Below are positions 27,301 to 39,300 of a stretch of 64,000 bases of DNA, in pieces. Positions within the stretch are counted from its first letter, which is position 1. Each line of letters opens with the position of its first letter. The position numbers were made by a program. The stretch is from NCBI RefSeq assembly GCF_056712565.1, contig NZ_CM160072.1; one strand, given 5' to 3'.

Positions 27301-30300
27301 CTGTATACCGAAATGGTGACCACAGGGGCGATTATTCACGGTAAAGGTGATTACCTGGCGTACAGTGAAGAAGAACATCCGGTAGCGTTGCAACTCGGGG
27401 GTAGCGATCCGGCGGCGCTGGCACAGTGTGCGAAGCTGGCAGAAGCGCGTGGATACGATGAGATCAACCTGAATGTCGGCTGCCCGTCTGACCGGGTGCA
27501 GAACGGCATGTTTGGTGCGTGTCTGATGGGTAATGCGCAGCTGGTTGCCGACTGCGTGAAAGCGATGCGCGATGTGGTGTCGATTCCGGTGACGGTGAAA
27601 ACGCGTATTGGCATCGATGATCAGGACAGCTATGAATTTCTCTGCGATTTCATCAACACCGTTTCCGGCAAAGGTGAGTGTGAGATGTTCATCATCCACG
27701 CACGTAAAGCCTGGCTTTCTGGGTTAAGTCCGAAAGAAAACCGTGAGATCCCGCCTCTCGATTATCCGCGTGTGTATCAACTGAAGCGTGACTTTCCGCA
27801 TCTGACGATGTCGATTAACGGTGGTATCAAGTCGCTGGAAGAAGCTAAAGCGCATTTGCAACATATGGATGGCGTGATGGTCGGGCGCGAGGCGTATCAG
27901 AATCCGGGGATTCTGGCGGCGGTAGACCGAGAGATTTTTGGTTCCTCGGATACCGATGCCGATCCGGTGGCGGTAGTGCGCGCCATGTATCCGTACATTG
28001 AGCGTGAACTCAGCCAGGGTACGTATCTCGGCCATATTACCCGGCATATGCTGGGCTTGTTCCAGGGTATTCCTGGCGCGCGGCAGTGGCGGCGTTATTT
28101 AAGTGAAAATGCCCATAAAGCGGGTGCAGACATTAATGTGCTGGAACACGCGCTCAAACTGGTGGCGGATAAGCGTTAACTTTTCACCAAAAAGTAGTCA
28201 AATTCACCACGCCCTGCGCCCCGTCGCGGGGCGTTTTGCTGTTAAATCAATAGATTATTTTTGGCATGATTCTTGTAATGCCAGCAAGAGATTTCATATT
28301 TGGGAGAGCATCATGCTGGAACTACTTTTTGTAATTGGCTTTTTTGTCATGCTGATGGTCACCGGTGTTTCGTTGCTGGGTATTATCGCCGCGCTGATTG
28401 TGGCGACGGCCTTTATGTTCCTCGGCGGTATGCTGGCATTGATGATTAAGTTGCTGCCGTGGCTGCTGTTGGCGGTTGCGGTGGTGTGGGTGATCAGGGC
28501 GATAAAAGCACCAAAAGTGCCGAAATATCAGCGTTATGACCGCTGGCGTTACTAAGGGATTGTGCGGATGATCACAACCTAAGGTTTTATCCTTAGAACA
28601 AAATAGGAATTGATAATCAAATCTGTCACTATTGCGCGTCAAACAAATTCATCGAGCTGTACCCTACATACAGCCGAACTATAAAAGAAAGGGCTTCCCA
28701 GGTGGAAGCCCAATTTCTTTTATGGAATCAATAGGCTGGAACCCTGCGTCGCCCGGCTTTCCAGAATCTCATGCGCACGCCGCGCATCCTTCAGCGGATA
28801 TTTCTGCTGCTCGGCGACATCGACCTTAATCACACCGCTGGCAATCAAAGAGAACAGTTCATTACTGGCCTCGGTTAATTCCTCCCGCGTGGTGATATAG
28901 CCTTGCAGGGAAGGGCGTGTCACATACAACGAGCCTTTCTGATTGAGAATGCCTAAGTTCACACCGGTAACCGCACCTGATGAGTTGCCAAAACTCACCA
29001 TTAAGCCGCGGCGTTGCAGGCAATCCAGCGACCGTTCCCAGGTGTCTCTGCCCACTGAATCGTACACCACGCGCACTTTCTTACCACCGGTGATCTCTTT
29101 CAATCGCTCGACCAGATTCTCTTCACGATAGTTAATAACCTGCCACGCGCCCGCTTTTAGCGCACTCTGCGCTTTTTGCGCGGTTCCTACAGTGCCGATA
29201 AGTTTCGCGCCCAGGGCTTTTGCCCACTGGCAGGCAATCAAGCCAACGCCGCCAGCCGCTGCGTGGAACAGGAACTGTTCATCGGGTTTAATTTCATAGG
29301 TTTTGCGCAGCAGATAATAAACCGTTAAGCCTTTCAGGAAGGATGCCGCAGCTTGCTCAAAAGAAATTGCCGCAGGCAGAATCGCCGCTTTATCTGCATT
29401 AATGTTATGCACAGAGCTGTAAGCGCCTAATGCCGATTGTGCATAGACTACGCGATCGCCTGCCTTAATATGCTTTACACCACTGCCGACTTTACTCACG
29501 ATGCCTGCCGCTTCGGTACCTAATCCGCTGGGTAGCGATGGCGGCGGGTAAAGGCCGCTGCGGATATACGTGTCGATAAAATTGATGCCGATGGCTTTAT
29601 TTTCGACCTGGATTTCATTCTCCGCCGGATCGGCAGGAGTGAACTCTACGGCTTGAAGTACTTCCGGGCCACCGTGCTTGTGAAATTCAATTCGTATTGC
29701 CATTTAAACTCCTTTACTGAGCGACATATCTGTTTTAAGCCTAACAGTAGTCGCCAGGCCGCGCGGGGATTTTTTCCGGGCTGCGGTCACAACCCGGAAT
29801 ATCTCTGATCAGTATTGAAACGGCGTCGCCGCAATCCAGTTTTGCCACTGGCGCTCAAAGTTGGTTAGCGTTAATACGCCCCGTTCACGGCACGGGCGAG
29901 TCCAGGTTTGGTAATCATTAGCTTCCCGACAAACACAAATCATATATTGCCTGGCATCCTGATTTTCTGGCCGAAAACGCCAGGCCAGGAGTGGCCCACC
30001 TGGTGTTTGCGGTGCAATACCGGCTTCGCCATCATAGATAGCCCTGGCACCACGACTCCCACCACCGTTTTCGACATAACATTGTAAAGAACGCAGTACA
30101 GCCAGCGCCAGTTGCGCACTTTGTCGCCACTGGAAAGATTGTGCCAGGCTGTTTTCATCGCATTGAATACCTTCCCGGCGAATATCTTCACAAAGTGTTG
30201 CCAGGGTTTGCGCGGCAGTGTTGATCCCCTGTGTATGACACAAAATTGCGGCATGGTGGCTCATGGTATTTTGTATCGTTTCTCGCACGTCGTCACGTAG

Positions 30301-36300: not shown

Positions 36301-39300
36301 AACACCACGTCGCGGGCATTGTCCTCTGTCCAGTGAACAGTACCTCAGAAGCCGATTTACAGCGTTATGCCAACAGTTCCACACCCTTATTAATCACGAT
36401 GCGCCCTCTGGATTGGCAACAATTGCCCGTCGATTACGTTGGCGTGGACAGCCACGCAGGTGTACGGGAAGCGACGGAATATCTCATTCAACAAGGGCAC
36501 AGAGATATCGTGTTTATTGGTGGTCTTACGCACCATATGCGTTATCAGGGATACCTTGAGGCGATGAATCACCATGGTTTACAGCCGTGGAGTACTGATG
36601 CTTTTTCGCTGCGTGCTGAACCGACTCAGGCCAACGGCTACCAGTTGATGCAACAGCTGTTGGATATGCCTTCGCCACCCACAGCGGTGATTTGTTATAA
36701 CGATTTAATGGCTTTTGGCGCGGAGTCGGCACTAGGCGAAAGAGGATTATTTGCCGGGGAAGATATTTCGTTGATTGGTAATGATGGCGTGGCGGCTTGT
36801 GCTTACAGTAACCCGCCGTTAACCACAATTGCGGTAGAACCATTGGCTCTGGGGAAACAGGCGGCGCAGCAAATTTTACGGCGTATTGCGCAACCAGACG
36901 CACCGCTCAGCCATTACATCTATCGCCCGACCCTGCAAATTCGCGCTTCCACCGGAAAGCGGGGGCGTTAAATGCTGTAGCGAGAAACTGTTTCTCGCTA
37001 TACTCTCTTGTCCCCCATTCAACAGCAGGTAACACCATTCGTTATGGCAGGCAATAGACCTTTCAACAAACAACAGACTGATAACCGCGAACGCGATCCA
37101 CAAGTTGCCGGGCTGAAAGTGCCTCCGCACTCGATCGAAGCGGAGCAGTCGGTGTTGGGCGGTTTAATGCTGGATAACGAACGCTGGGATGATGTAGCTG
37201 AGCGTGTGGTGGCAGATGATTTTTACACCCGCCCACACCGTCATATCTTTACTGAAATGGCGCGTTTGCAGGAAAGCGGTAGTCCTATCGATCTGATTAC
37301 CCTTGCGGAATCGCTGGAACGCCAGGGGCAACTCGATAGCGTCGGTGGTTTTGCTTATCTGGCAGAGCTGTCAAAAAATACGCCAAGTGCGGCGAACATC
37401 AGTGCATATGCGGATATCGTGCGCGAACGTGCCGTTGTTCGTGAGATGATCTCCGTTGCTAACGAGATTGCCGAAGCTGGTTTTGATCCACAAGGGCGTA
37501 CCAGTGAAGATCTGCTCGACCTTGCTGAATCCCGCGTCTTTAAAATTGCCGAAAGTCGTGCAAACAAAGACGAAGGGCCGAAGAACATCGCCGATGTGCT
37601 CGACGCAACCGTGGCGCGTATTGAGCAGTTGTTTCAGCAGCCACACGATGGCGTTACCGGGGTAAATACCGGTTATGACGATCTCAACAAAAAAACCGCT
37701 GGCTTGCAGCCGTCGGATTTGATCATCGTTGCCGCGCGTCCGTCGATGGGTAAAACGACATTTGCGATGAACCTCGTCGAAAACGCGGCGATGTTGCAGG
37801 ATAAACCGGTGCTTATCTTTTCGCTGGAGATGCCATCAGAACAGATTATGATGCGTTCTCTGGCGTCGCTGTCGCGCGTTGACCAGACTAAAATCCGTAC
37901 CGGGCAGCTCGATGATGAAGACTGGGCACGCATTTCCGGCACCATGGGTATTTTGCTCGAAAAACGCAATATCTATATCGATGATTCCTCCGGCTTGACG
38001 CCAACGGAAGTGCGTTCCCGCGCACGCCGTATTGCCCGTGAACACGGCGGCATCGGGCTTATCATGATCGACTACCTGCAACTGATGCGCGTACCGGCGC
38101 TTTCCGATAACCGTACGCTGGAAATTGCAGAAATCTCCCGCTCGCTGAAAGCACTGGCGAAAGAACTGAACGTGCCGGTGGTGGCGCTGTCCCAGTTGAA
38201 CCGTTCTCTGGAACAACGTGCCGACAAACGCCCGGTCAACTCCGACCTGCGTGAATCTGGCTCTATCGAGCAGGATGCGGACTTGATCATGTTTATCTAT
38301 CGTGATGAGGTGTATCACGAAAACAGTGATTTAAAAGGCATCGCGGAAATTATTATCGGTAAACAACGTAACGGCCCAATCGGGACGGTACGCCTGACCT
38401 TTAACGGTCAATGGTCGCGCTTCGACAACTATGCGGGGCCGCAGTACGACGACGAATAATAATTATTTTATGAATTAGGTAATTAAAGCAAACACTTATC
38501 AAGGAACACTAATGCAAGCGGCAACTGTTGTGATTAACCGCCGCGCTCTGCGACACAACCTGCAACGTCTTCGTGAACTGGCGCCTGCCAGTAAAATGGT
38601 TGCGGTGGTGAAAGCGAACGCTTATGGTCACGGTCTTCTTGAGACCGCGCGAACGCTCCCCGATGCTGACGCCTTTGGCGTAGCCCGTCTCGAAGAAGCT
38701 CTGCGACTGCGTGCGGGGGGAATCACCAAACCTGTACTTTTACTCGAAGGCTTTTTTGATGCCAGAGATCTACCGACGATTTCTGCGCAACATTTTCATA
38801 CCGCCGTGCATAACGAAGAACAGCTGGCTGCGCTGGAAGAGGCTAGCCTGGACGAGCCGGTTACCGTCTGGATGAAACTCGATACCGGTATGCACCGTCT
38901 GGGCGTAAGGCCGGAACAGGCTGAGGCGTTTTATCATCGTCTGACCCAGTGCAAAAACGTTCGTCAGCCGGTGAATATCGTCAGCCATTTTGCGCGCGCG
39001 GATGAACCAAAATGCGGCGCAACCGAGAAGCAACTCGCTATCTTTAATACCTTTTGCGAAGGCAAACCTGGTCAACGTTCCATTGCCGCGTCGGGTGGCA
39101 TTTTACTCTGGCCACAGTCGCATTTTGACTGGGTGCGCCCGGGCATCATTCTTTACGGCGTATCTCCGCTGGAAGATCGCTCCACCGGTGCCGATTTTGG
39201 CTGTCAGCCAGTGATGTCGCTAACCTCCAGCCTGATTGCCGTGCGTGAGCATAAAGCCGGAGAGCCTGTCGGTTATGGTGGAACCTGGGTAAGCGAACGT

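Follow-up and report, generated by a model that had tools for sequence, protein, structure and literature searches.

A 7.3-kb insert between qorA and dnaB, located in a 64,000-nucleotide stretch of Escherichia coli DNA (RefSeq assembly GCF_056712565.1, contig NZ_CM160072.1; the whole stretch is called the window and all positions refer to it), encodes a LacI-family regulator and, divergently, a coenzyme A (CoA) transferase, a crotonase, a transporter and a flavoprotein. Sequence comparison indicates that this island is a maintained, functional unit under strong purifying selection. As a kind of system it is an ordinary accessory catabolic operon; its core is an enzyme family that has not been characterised, and its combination of enzymes is unusual. 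Our preferred but tentative reading is that these genes form a functional operon under LacI repression that breaks down an imported sugar acid, with a hexuronate or a closely related C6 acid outside the core UxaC route as the likeliest substrate.

Organisation and maintenance of the island

The four structural genes are found on the minus strand. The first gene codes for a fused class I CoA-transferase of the YdiF type (34110-35681, 523 residues) and overlaps by 8 bp with the gene of a crotonase-type enoyl-CoA hydratase/dehydratase (33338-34117, 259 residues). These are followed by a major facilitator superfamily (MFS) transporter of the metabolite:H+ symporter (MHS) type (31847-33247, 466 residues) and, with an overlap of 11 bp, by the last gene, which encodes a free-standing flavoprotein of the SdhA/NadB superfamily (29809-31857, 682 residues from the ATG). 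A divergent spacer of 255 bp (35682-35936) separates them from the regulator gene on the plus strand (35937-36971, 344 residues). The same five genes are present in the RefSeq annotation of the S88 locus and are 100% identical. The initial annotation had described a tightly packed operon with a divergent LacI-type regulator, inserted at a site where K-12 has no such genes. Its coordinates and both overlaps hold on the map of open reading frames (ORFs), its five family assignments hold as well, and in K-12 MG1655 the gap between qorA and dnaB was only 82 bp.

The synteny survey of the qor-dnaB junction that had been proposed with it was run on 5426 complete E. coli genomes. The island was present in 826 of them (~15%, about 1 in 7), and 4597 had the uninterrupted K-12-type junction. 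Hundreds of genomes share the island with 99-100% sequence identity, and in many genomes of extraintestinal pathogenic E. coli (ExPEC) the identity is 100%. The version with the MFS transporter, as in the window, was found in 278 genomes, including S88, the avian pathogenic strain APEC O18, the type strain ATCC 11775 and 83972. In about 548 E. coli genomes an Nramp-like transporter gene was found in its place. Here, the segment 31810-33349, which takes in the MFS gene together with the initial codons of the flavoprotein gene and the gap before the crotonase gene, is replaced by 1365 bp encoding a 409-residue "Nramp family" protein (compare locus L002, 4607-5971). The sequences on the two sides of the exchanged segment are 98.3% and 99.5% identical between the E. 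coli versions. The synonymous divergence (dS) between them was 0.064 for the flavoprotein gene versus 0.008-0.024 for the crotonase, transferase and regulator genes, and this higher value suggests that the recombination tract reaches into the flavoprotein gene.

Both layouts were also found outside E. coli. The enterobacterial contig L088 has a LacI gene divergent from transferase, crotonase, MFS and flavoprotein genes with ~75% DNA identity, and the contig L089 has the Nramp-like layout with ~73% DNA identity. Since both occur there, the MFS and Nramp-like genes are, by sequence comparison, old alternatives in one slot. For every island gene, the ratio of non-synonymous to synonymous divergence (dN/dS) from the nearest orthologues outside E. 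coli was 0.02-0.09, and the best-conserved proteins were the two transporters, with 90-92% amino acid identity to their orthologues outside E. coli. It is from these ratios and from the conserved proteins that we take the island to be maintained and functional.

The only paper that we found to mention the genes lists them as uncharacterised, places them in "GR 32, qorA..aphA" and reports the five ORFs as absent from adherent-invasive E. coli strains including LF82 (PMC12928451, 2026). The identities listed there are 33.7% to ShiA, 33.3% to CaiD, 36.4% to YdiF and 31.6% to PurR (PMC12928451).

The flavoprotein family, its partners and their regulator

The flavoprotein has a three-domain fold with the N-terminal Rossmann motif for flavin adenine dinucleotide (FAD), and its residues were mapped with hhalign profile alignments to E. 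coli FrdA and NadB. The histidine of covalent FAD attachment (FrdA H44) corresponds to A81, a residue that hardly varies within the family, and the substrate histidine H232 corresponds to G276. The carboxylate-binding pair H355 and R390 is kept as H437 and R469, both invariant. For the proton donor R287 there was no confidently aligned equivalent: the capping domain (~277-413) cannot be aligned reliably, and the proton-donor arginine of FrdA and NadB was not located. Neither the island nor the related clusters were found to contain a gene for a partner Fe-S subunit. Because of the residue pattern and the missing Fe-S partner, the flavoprotein is, as judged from its sequence, a free-standing NadB-like enzyme that probably still clamps one carboxylate but whose active site differs in its other half. 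Compared to NadB and the soluble fumarate reductases with non-covalent FAD, it has ~18% identity, is ~140 residues longer, lacks an alignable capping domain and differs at the H232 position. The best NCBIfam NadB models gave scores of 54-94 bits, far under their cut-offs of 450-720, and do not support an identity as L-aspartate oxidase. Of the features of FrdA and SdhA, the covalent-FAD histidine, the full dicarboxylate site and the Fe-S partner are missing.

To describe the family, 8000 word-indexed candidates were scored, of which 7745 matched at E<=1e-10; among 50%-identity representatives there were 376 clusters at E<=1e-30. The members span Proteobacteria, Lentisphaerae, Planctomycetes, Firmicutes and Asgard archaea. 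In the AlphaFold database (AFDB), the relatives from Salmonella, Succinatimonas, Enterocloster, Victivallis, Treponema and one Asgard archaeon are named just "FAD-binding protein" or "oxidoreductase". These sequence searches indicate a large and strongly conserved family with no characterised member among the relatives found. Across 72 members with only 51-55% identity to the flavoprotein, ~150 columns were invariant, and this conservation covers clusters both with and without CoA enzymes. The capping domain contains many invariant aromatic and polar residues, among them W286, N287, Y292, K329, Y331, W333, H336 and R339. Because of these pocket residues and the equal conservation in clusters without CoA enzymes, the flavoprotein would most likely act on a free acid and not on a thioester.

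The AlphaFold confidence score (pLDDT) was below 50 at residues 79-98, 152-165 and 466-475, which belong to the most conserved segments of the family (GTSACSGSDKQTLHTA, YQTDHDE.GRATSCGPRTSRLM and GVTRPGGAAL). From the model, these are probably FAD- or substrate-binding loops that are ordered only with ligand. A 38%-identical member (L093, 655-5485) is located between a glycosidase of family GH4 and an ene-reductase of the Old Yellow Enzyme type. GH4 glycosidases use an NAD-dependent oxidation-elimination mechanism, and by analogy these neighbours may be a clue to the reactions of the family at large.

The gene neighbourhoods were surveyed with one genome per species, which gave 322 relatives; 80 of the 322 loci and extra contigs were analysed by tblastn and by clustering of all ORFs. 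The flavoprotein was the constant of these neighbourhoods, and the partner genes varied. The layout of the E. coli B2 clade (a) has the LacI gene divergent from CoA-transferase, crotonase, MFS or Nramp-like transporter and flavoprotein. In many Rhizobiaceae and Rhodobacteraceae (layout b), the flavoprotein is accompanied by a sugar ABC transporter, two GMC oxidoreductases, a Dabb protein, a LacI regulator, a levoglucosan-dehydrogenase-like Gfo/Idh/MocA enzyme, a PfkB kinase of the type acting on 2-keto-3-deoxygluconate or 2-keto-3-deoxygalactonate (KDG/KDGal) and sometimes a gene resembling the aldolase of 2-keto-3-deoxy-6-phosphogluconate (KDPG). In other alpha- and betaproteobacteria (layout c), a crotonase and a CoA-transferase 58-68% identical to that of E. 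coli take the place of the GMC pair, and one locus of this type carries both sets. Kosakonia, Phytobacter, Enterobacter, Yersinia and others (layout d) have a TetR gene divergent from genes for an SDR, a Gfo/Idh/MocA enzyme, an AP_endonuc_2-fold protein, an anion-type MFS transporter and the flavoprotein. A minimal form (layout e) has TetR with SDR, flavoprotein, AP_endonuc_2 and a TRAP transporter. In layout f, found in Uliginosibacterium, Escherichia whittamii, Entomohabitans and E. coli, TetR is divergent from SDR, AP_endonuc_2, crotonase, CoA-transferase, flavoprotein and a TRAP or MFS transporter.

In E. coli, layout f lies between ytfB and rplI, where matches were found in 3164 of the 5426 genomes and full-length matches in 1446. 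Its transferase is only 38.6% identical to that of the island. By this comparison, two separate CoA-transferase/crotonase lineages have joined the flavoprotein family independently, and this speaks for a genuine functional link of the CoA pair with the flavoprotein. The existence of clusters without CoA enzymes indicates, at the level of gene content, that the flavoprotein does not need them. Examples of layout f are L096 (E. coli L65, 4459-14230), L059, L055 and L067; the cluster is likewise uncharacterised and is absent from K-12, where ytfA may be a remnant of its TetR gene.

The regulator is an ordinary LacI-family protein with an N-terminal helix-turn-helix and an effector domain like that of periplasmic binding proteins. 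It matched the NCBIfam models of MalI, RbsR, CytR and PurR over the full length with 185-216 bits, all under the cut-offs, and its orthologues carry the PF00356 and Peripla_BP domains. The recognition helix AGVSKSTVSLVL was identical in 16 alpha- and betaproteobacterial regulators of flavoprotein clusters, and the hinge GYVYNR was identical or nearly so in the same 16, with an overall identity of only 33-39%. When the divergent spacer was aligned with those of L088 and L089, conserved blocks were observed, and both contained the perfect palindrome TTGGAACGTTCCAA, a candidate site with a central CG in the regulator's own control region. The window has a degenerate copy of it, TTGGAACGATCTAA (35757-35770), as a candidate LacI-type operator ~75 bp upstream of the CoA-transferase start. 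In the window alone, this match with 2 mismatches was not above chance, so that its support is comparative only. The scan of the spacer for promoters gave only weak sigma-70-like matches, and the promoter and terminator scans were no better than with shuffled sequence.

The core TGGAACGNTCCA was present in 20 of the 89 loci, upstream of Gfo, flavoprotein, CoA-transferase and LacI genes, where by our own estimate less than 1 site is expected by chance in ~1.45 Mb on both strands. With one mismatch allowed, most sites lay a short way upstream of a Gfo, flavoprotein, CoA-transferase, LacI or GMC gene. The putative operator TGGAACGTTCCA and the recognition helix are common to the alpha-, beta- and gammaproteobacterial clusters. 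Because both are shared across the classes, the island, as far as sequence can tell, belongs to a regulon type conserved in three proteobacterial classes, and the effectors of these regulators are probably related. The LacI-type regulon with TGGAACGTTCCA was observed in Rhizobiaceae, Rhodobacteraceae and some Burkholderiales (L023, L030, L037, L047, L050, L052, L056, L062, L064 and others). It includes the sugar ABC transporter, two GMC oxidoreductases, the Dabb protein, the levoglucosan-dehydrogenase-like enzyme, the flavoprotein, the KDG-type kinase and the KDPG-aldolase-like gene, and from this content the alphaproteobacterial regulon appears to be an undescribed route of sugar oxidation.

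The CoA-transferase aligned end to end with YdiF (2ahu; E 1e-99, residues 5-516 on 14-517), with the same length and fused two-domain architecture. Its E330 (LLEQGAIGG) aligns with the glutamate at position 333 of the 2ahu chain (VETGPIGG), which we take to be the catalytic Glu333 that forms the enzyme-CoA thioester, and by this alignment the catalytic glutamate is kept. Orthologues annotated with PF01144 and 58-68% identical adjoin the flavoprotein in alpha- and betaproteobacteria. The neighbours of YdiF in K-12 are an acyl-CoA dehydrogenase and the genes of an electron-transferring flavoprotein (ETF). The genomic partners of the island transferase differ from these, and its identity to YdiF is ~36% (supplement of PMC12928451). 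For the crotonase, the best solved relatives were 3-hydroxypropionyl-CoA dehydratase (5zai, 5e-55) and the short-chain enoyl-CoA hydratase 5z7r, both over the full length. Both catalytic glutamate motifs are readable (GGGLE and LPE), with their correspondence to E144 and E164 of rat enoyl-CoA hydratase judged by inspection. The crotonase scored 145 bits with the model of the crotonobetainyl-CoA hydratase CaiD (cut-off 500) and is 33% identical to CaiD, which places it in the same superfamily but not as an equivalog.

Substrate class, possible chemistry and competing explanations

None of the five proteins reached a curated NCBIfam cut-off, the Pfam scan found generic domains only, and sequence and fold searches of PDB and AFDB gave only distant or unnamed relatives. 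A known pathway was therefore rejected by the lack of an NCBIfam equivalog for any of the five, as the initial annotation had anticipated when it could match the combination to no named pathway.

The substrate class was approached through the transporters, where three independent clues agree: the Nramp-like protein without the metal site, a TRAP binding protein and an alphaproteobacterial ABC binding protein. In alignments to solved Nramps, the DPGN motif of the first transmembrane segment is changed to GTGS and the PH of the MPH motif in the sixth to PA. IGTGS is invariant in the Nramp-like subfamily. A 64%-identical homologue was found in a locus with uxuA divergent from uxuB, uxaC and a GntR gene, at the position that the hexuronate carrier ExuT has in E. 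coli. Homologues with 50-51% identity were found behind SusC/SusD beside a mannose-6-phosphate-isomerase-like gene and inside a sulfatase/Gfo polysaccharide locus. From its motifs and gene contexts, the IGTGS subfamily is probably a sugar or sugar-acid carrier and not a metal transporter. Members of the subfamily (L002, 4653-5882; L089, 8698-9978; L097, L098 and L099) carry the RefSeq label "Nramp family divalent metal transporter". The second clue is the TRAP binding protein of layout f, WP_000695886.1 in E. coli, whose closest solved relatives are 4ovr, 4n15, 4n8y, 4n91, 4mij/4mhf, 4x8r and 4p1l (E 1e-67 to 1e-55). For 4ovr and the relatives other than 4n15, 4n91 and 4mhf, we take the ligands to be hexuronates. 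The bound ligand is D-glucuronate in 4n91 and glucuronate/galacturonate in 4mhf, and 4n15 was the modelling template for the hexuronate-binding STM3169 (PMC7660916). The third clue is the ABC binding protein of the alphaproteobacterial operons, which is similar to binding proteins for glucose. The MFS transporter scored 353 bits with the MHS model TIGR00883 (cut-off 443), and a truncated copy is called "MHS family MFS transporter" in RefSeq.

The transporter clues and the LacI-type regulator point to a C6 sugar acid, in the simplest case a hexuronate or an aldonate. The alphaproteobacterial operons end in the KDG-type kinase and the aldolase. Sugar-acid assimilation is favoured over the respiration of an enoate because the sister clusters carry the KDG-type kinase, the KDPG aldolase and a sugar ABC or hexuronate-type TRAP transporter, and because their hosts, such as Rhizobium and Rhodobacteraceae, are aerobic. 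The known hexuronate routes of E. coli (UxaC-UxuB-UxuA or UxaB-UxaA, and KduI-KduD to KDG) share the likely substrate class and the likely 2-keto-3-deoxy end product but use neither CoA thioesters nor a flavoprotein. None of the five island proteins matched the UxaC, UxuAB, UxaAB, Udh or KduID families. The work of Bouvier et al. 2019 on hexuronate regulons reportedly does not cover this cluster.

In the pathway that we propose, the acid would be taken up by the MHS symporter or, in the sister variant, by the Nramp-fold protein without a metal site. The flavoprotein would then perform one two-electron step on the free acid, held by the His437/Arg469 clamp, at the carbon or carbons next to the carboxylate. 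This could be an oxidation at the alpha-hydroxy or C-alpha/C-beta position or the reduction of a conjugated C=C bond. The missing covalent-FAD histidine leans to a reductase or an oxidase acting on heteroatoms, and the lack of an electron-donor partner together with the aerobic hosts leans to an oxidase or dehydrogenase. In the third step, the YdiF-type transferase and the crotonase could work as a CoA-recycling hydratase or dehydratase: the thioester would acidify the alpha-proton, the beta-hydroxyl would be eliminated or added, and the CoA would be passed on to the next substrate molecule. With a hexuronate, the product would be 5-keto-4-deoxyuronate whatever the configuration at C4 and C5. 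A product of the 2-keto-3-deoxy type (the class of KDG and 5-keto-4-deoxyuronate) would be finished by the core enzymes KduI, KduD, KdgK and Eda. In the sister clusters, the dehydrogenase and the AP_endonuc_2-fold enzyme could lead, through oxidation with elimination, to an equivalent intermediate that is unsaturated or carries a keto group; such a pair is known from the routes for inositol, dehydroshikimate and levoglucosan. Of the schemes that were weighed, the data single out none; they comprised C5 epimerisation, alpha-hydroxy-acid oxidation, enoate reduction and a beta-oxidation-like sequence.

Several points weigh against the sugar-acid operon. No close homologue of the island enzymes with a known substrate was found, and the case for a sugar draws on SDR, isomerase-fold, Gfo and kinase genes that the E. 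coli island does not have. The crotonase and the transferase most resemble short-chain (C3-C4) enzymes, and the nearest characterised relative of the MFS transporter is the shikimate carrier ShiA, with 268 bits in its model, half of the cut-off of 538. As their sequences are only 52-55% identical, the flavoproteins of the different cluster types need not share a substrate. We know of no precedent for a crotonase that dehydrates a 2,3-dihydroxyacyl-CoA. The simplest dehydration scheme needs no redox step, and thus a part of the logic is missing.

Transferase and crotonase are known to work together in Halomonas, where AcuN and AcuK hydrate acrylate as a CoA-recycling pair on a free enoate or hydroxy acid; unlike the island, this system has a class III transferase (AcuN), a C3 substrate and no SdhA-like flavoprotein. 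Sugar-acid catabolism via CoA thioesters has been described in an enterobacterium with the deoxyribonate pathway of Klebsiella michiganensis (PMC6365646). That cluster has a CoA synthetase, a beta-hydroxyacyl-CoA dehydrogenase, a thiolase and a glycerate kinase but no crotonase and no SdhA-like flavoprotein, and the pathway was rejected as the identity of the island by this different enzyme set (PMC6365646).

A further-reaching form of the sugar-acid reading, in which the flavoprotein founds a new NadB/SdhA-like class acting on free sugar acids and, with the thioester-assisted beta-elimination, makes up a new route from hexuronates to 5-keto-4-deoxyuronate or KDG, is distinctly doubtful. If it were true, the route would erase the C4 and C5 stereocentres, and ExPEC of the B2 group (ST131-, ST95- and ST73-type) could use uronates closed to UxaC, for example L-iduronate from host glycosaminoglycans. 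The Nramp-fold proteins without the metal site would then be hexuronate or sugar-acid carriers.

An unlikely alternative is an anaerobic module like that of carnitine, in which a beta-hydroxy acid would be imported, activated by CoA transfer and dehydrated. As an electron sink, the flavoprotein would then reduce the enoyl-CoA or enoate, and the CoA would go back to fresh substrate. The gene content does parallel this series of transporter, CoA-transferase, crotonase and reductase: as in E. coli caiTABCDE (with fixABCX), a transporter, a CoA-recycling transferase, a crotonase-type dehydratase and one flavin redox enzyme are encoded in one operon. The components, however, are from different families except for the crotonase. 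The transferase is of class I and YdiF-like instead of class III (CaiB), the redox enzyme SdhA/NadB-like (FAD_binding_2) instead of the acyl-CoA-dehydrogenase type (CaiA), and the transporter of the MHS or Nramp-like type instead of a BCCT antiporter (CaiT); the island has neither a CoA ligase (CaiC) nor Fix electron-transfer genes and is under a LacI-type regulator. In complex II enzymes, missing covalent FAD goes with the behaviour of a reductase and not of a succinate oxidase, and the change of FrdA H44 to A81 in the flavoprotein fits this. Family members are also found in the strict anaerobes Enterocloster, Victivallis and Succinatimonas, and the distant member L093 adjoins an ene-reductase. 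Against an electron sink, the island encodes no electron-donor partner (no ETF or Fix protein, Fe-S subunit, haem or flavin mononucleotide domain), and the conservation of the flavoprotein is the same where a cluster has no CoA enzymes. The flavoprotein is also common in aerobic Rhizobiaceae and Rhodobacteraceae beside carbon-assimilating kinase and aldolase genes. The cai-like logic that the initial annotation had outlined is thus reasonable for the acid import, the CoA thioester, the hydration or dehydration and the single flavin redox step, but its anaerobic reading is unsupported. The suggested terminal enoyl-CoA reductase finds no electron-donor gene, and the family does not follow the CoA enzymes.

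Improbable, too, is a module for short-chain acids (3-hydroxypropionate/acrylate/propionate or 3-hydroxybutyrate/crotonate), where transferase and crotonase would interconvert the enoate and the 3-hydroxy acid and the flavoprotein the enoate and the saturated acid. It draws on the 3-hydroxypropionyl-CoA dehydratase 5zai as the best solved relative of the crotonase, followed by Crt-type hydratases, and on the membership of the transferase in the YdiF family of short-chain CoA-transferases, in which we also place the propionate CoA-transferase Pct. In alphaproteobacteria, a choline-dehydrogenase-like GMC enzyme and an aldehyde dehydrogenase beside the flavoprotein recall dddA and dddC of Halomonas. 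The regulator, however, is of the LacI type, the conserved regulon has sugar-type dehydrogenases, a PfkB sugar-acid kinase and the KDPG-aldolase-like gene, the transporters point to C6 sugars and uronates, and the invariant aromatic and polar residues of the capping domain suggest a larger, hydroxylated ligand.

Shikimate is an alpha,beta-unsaturated acid, and a pathway for a hydroaromatic acid (shikimate, quinate or a reduced derivative) could involve a reduction as by fumarate reductase or a hydration of the CoA ester by the crotonase. We regard it as quite improbable. ShiA is the closest characterised relative of the MFS transporter (268 bits; 33.7% identity, PMC12928451), but this score is half of the curated cut-off. 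The sister clusters contain Gfo/Idh/MocA proteins and proteins with the AP_endonuc_2 fold, families to which inositol dehydrogenase and the inosose and dehydroshikimate dehydratases belong; their kinase and aldolase, however, point to an open-chain 2-keto-3-deoxy acid, the relatives of the Nramp-like transporter are in uxu/uxa and polysaccharide loci, and the TRAP binding protein resembles hexuronate binders. That the island is a cryptic or decaying remnant without present function is hardly credible: many B2 strains such as LF82 (PMC12928451) and 85% of E. coli are without it, but the five ORFs are intact and 99-100% identical over hundreds of genomes, dN/dS is 0.02-0.09, the catalytic residues are kept and both transporter variants have 90-92% amino acid identity to the orthologues outside E. 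coli.

Among the carriers of the island are CFT073 and extraintestinal pathogenic strains such as S88, and no substrate is known for the product of any of the five genes. Should the compound prove to be a uronate from the host or the diet, the operon would bear on how ExPEC adapt to their niches in the gut and the urinary tract. The comparative data provide a candidate operator, a class of candidate ligands, two natural transporter variants and a paralogous cluster in most other E. coli, and solving one flavoprotein locus would annotate thousands of genes.

Junctions of the insert and neighbouring loci

The insert is flanked by qorA (28720-29703, minus strand) and by dnaB (from 37044, plus strand). 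The left junction spacer (29704-29808) extends from the start of qorA to the stop codon of the flavoprotein gene. When the K-12 junction was aligned with both junctions of the window, the divergence began right after the qorA start codon. No direct repeat of at least 8 bp common to both junctions was found, and neither the ORF map nor the S88 RefSeq annotation showed an integrase or transposase in the insert, which agrees with the initial annotation. The G+C content of the insert (~0.49-0.54) is similar to that of the flanks. The signs of a mobile-element origin were ruled out by the absence of integrase and transposase, of junction repeats and of a compositional shift. The Rfam scan found no match to an RNA family and PADLOC no meaningful match to a defence system, by which an RNA element or a defence system was rejected. 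Between the regulator gene and dnaB, a terminator-like hairpin with a 12-pair stem (36976-37002, plus strand) was observed as a match to the consensus pattern only.

A second small accessory insert is located between alr and tyrB at ~39614-41000 of the window. The S88 locus has pnuC and an AAA-family ATPase gene directly after alr, whereas in K-12 alr is followed by tyrB without these genes between them. Two additional ORFs have been listed for this interval (PMC12928451). At the zur-dusA spacer (~26500-27180), zur is directly followed by dusA in the S88-type sequence, and K-12 has yjbL and yjbM between the two genes.

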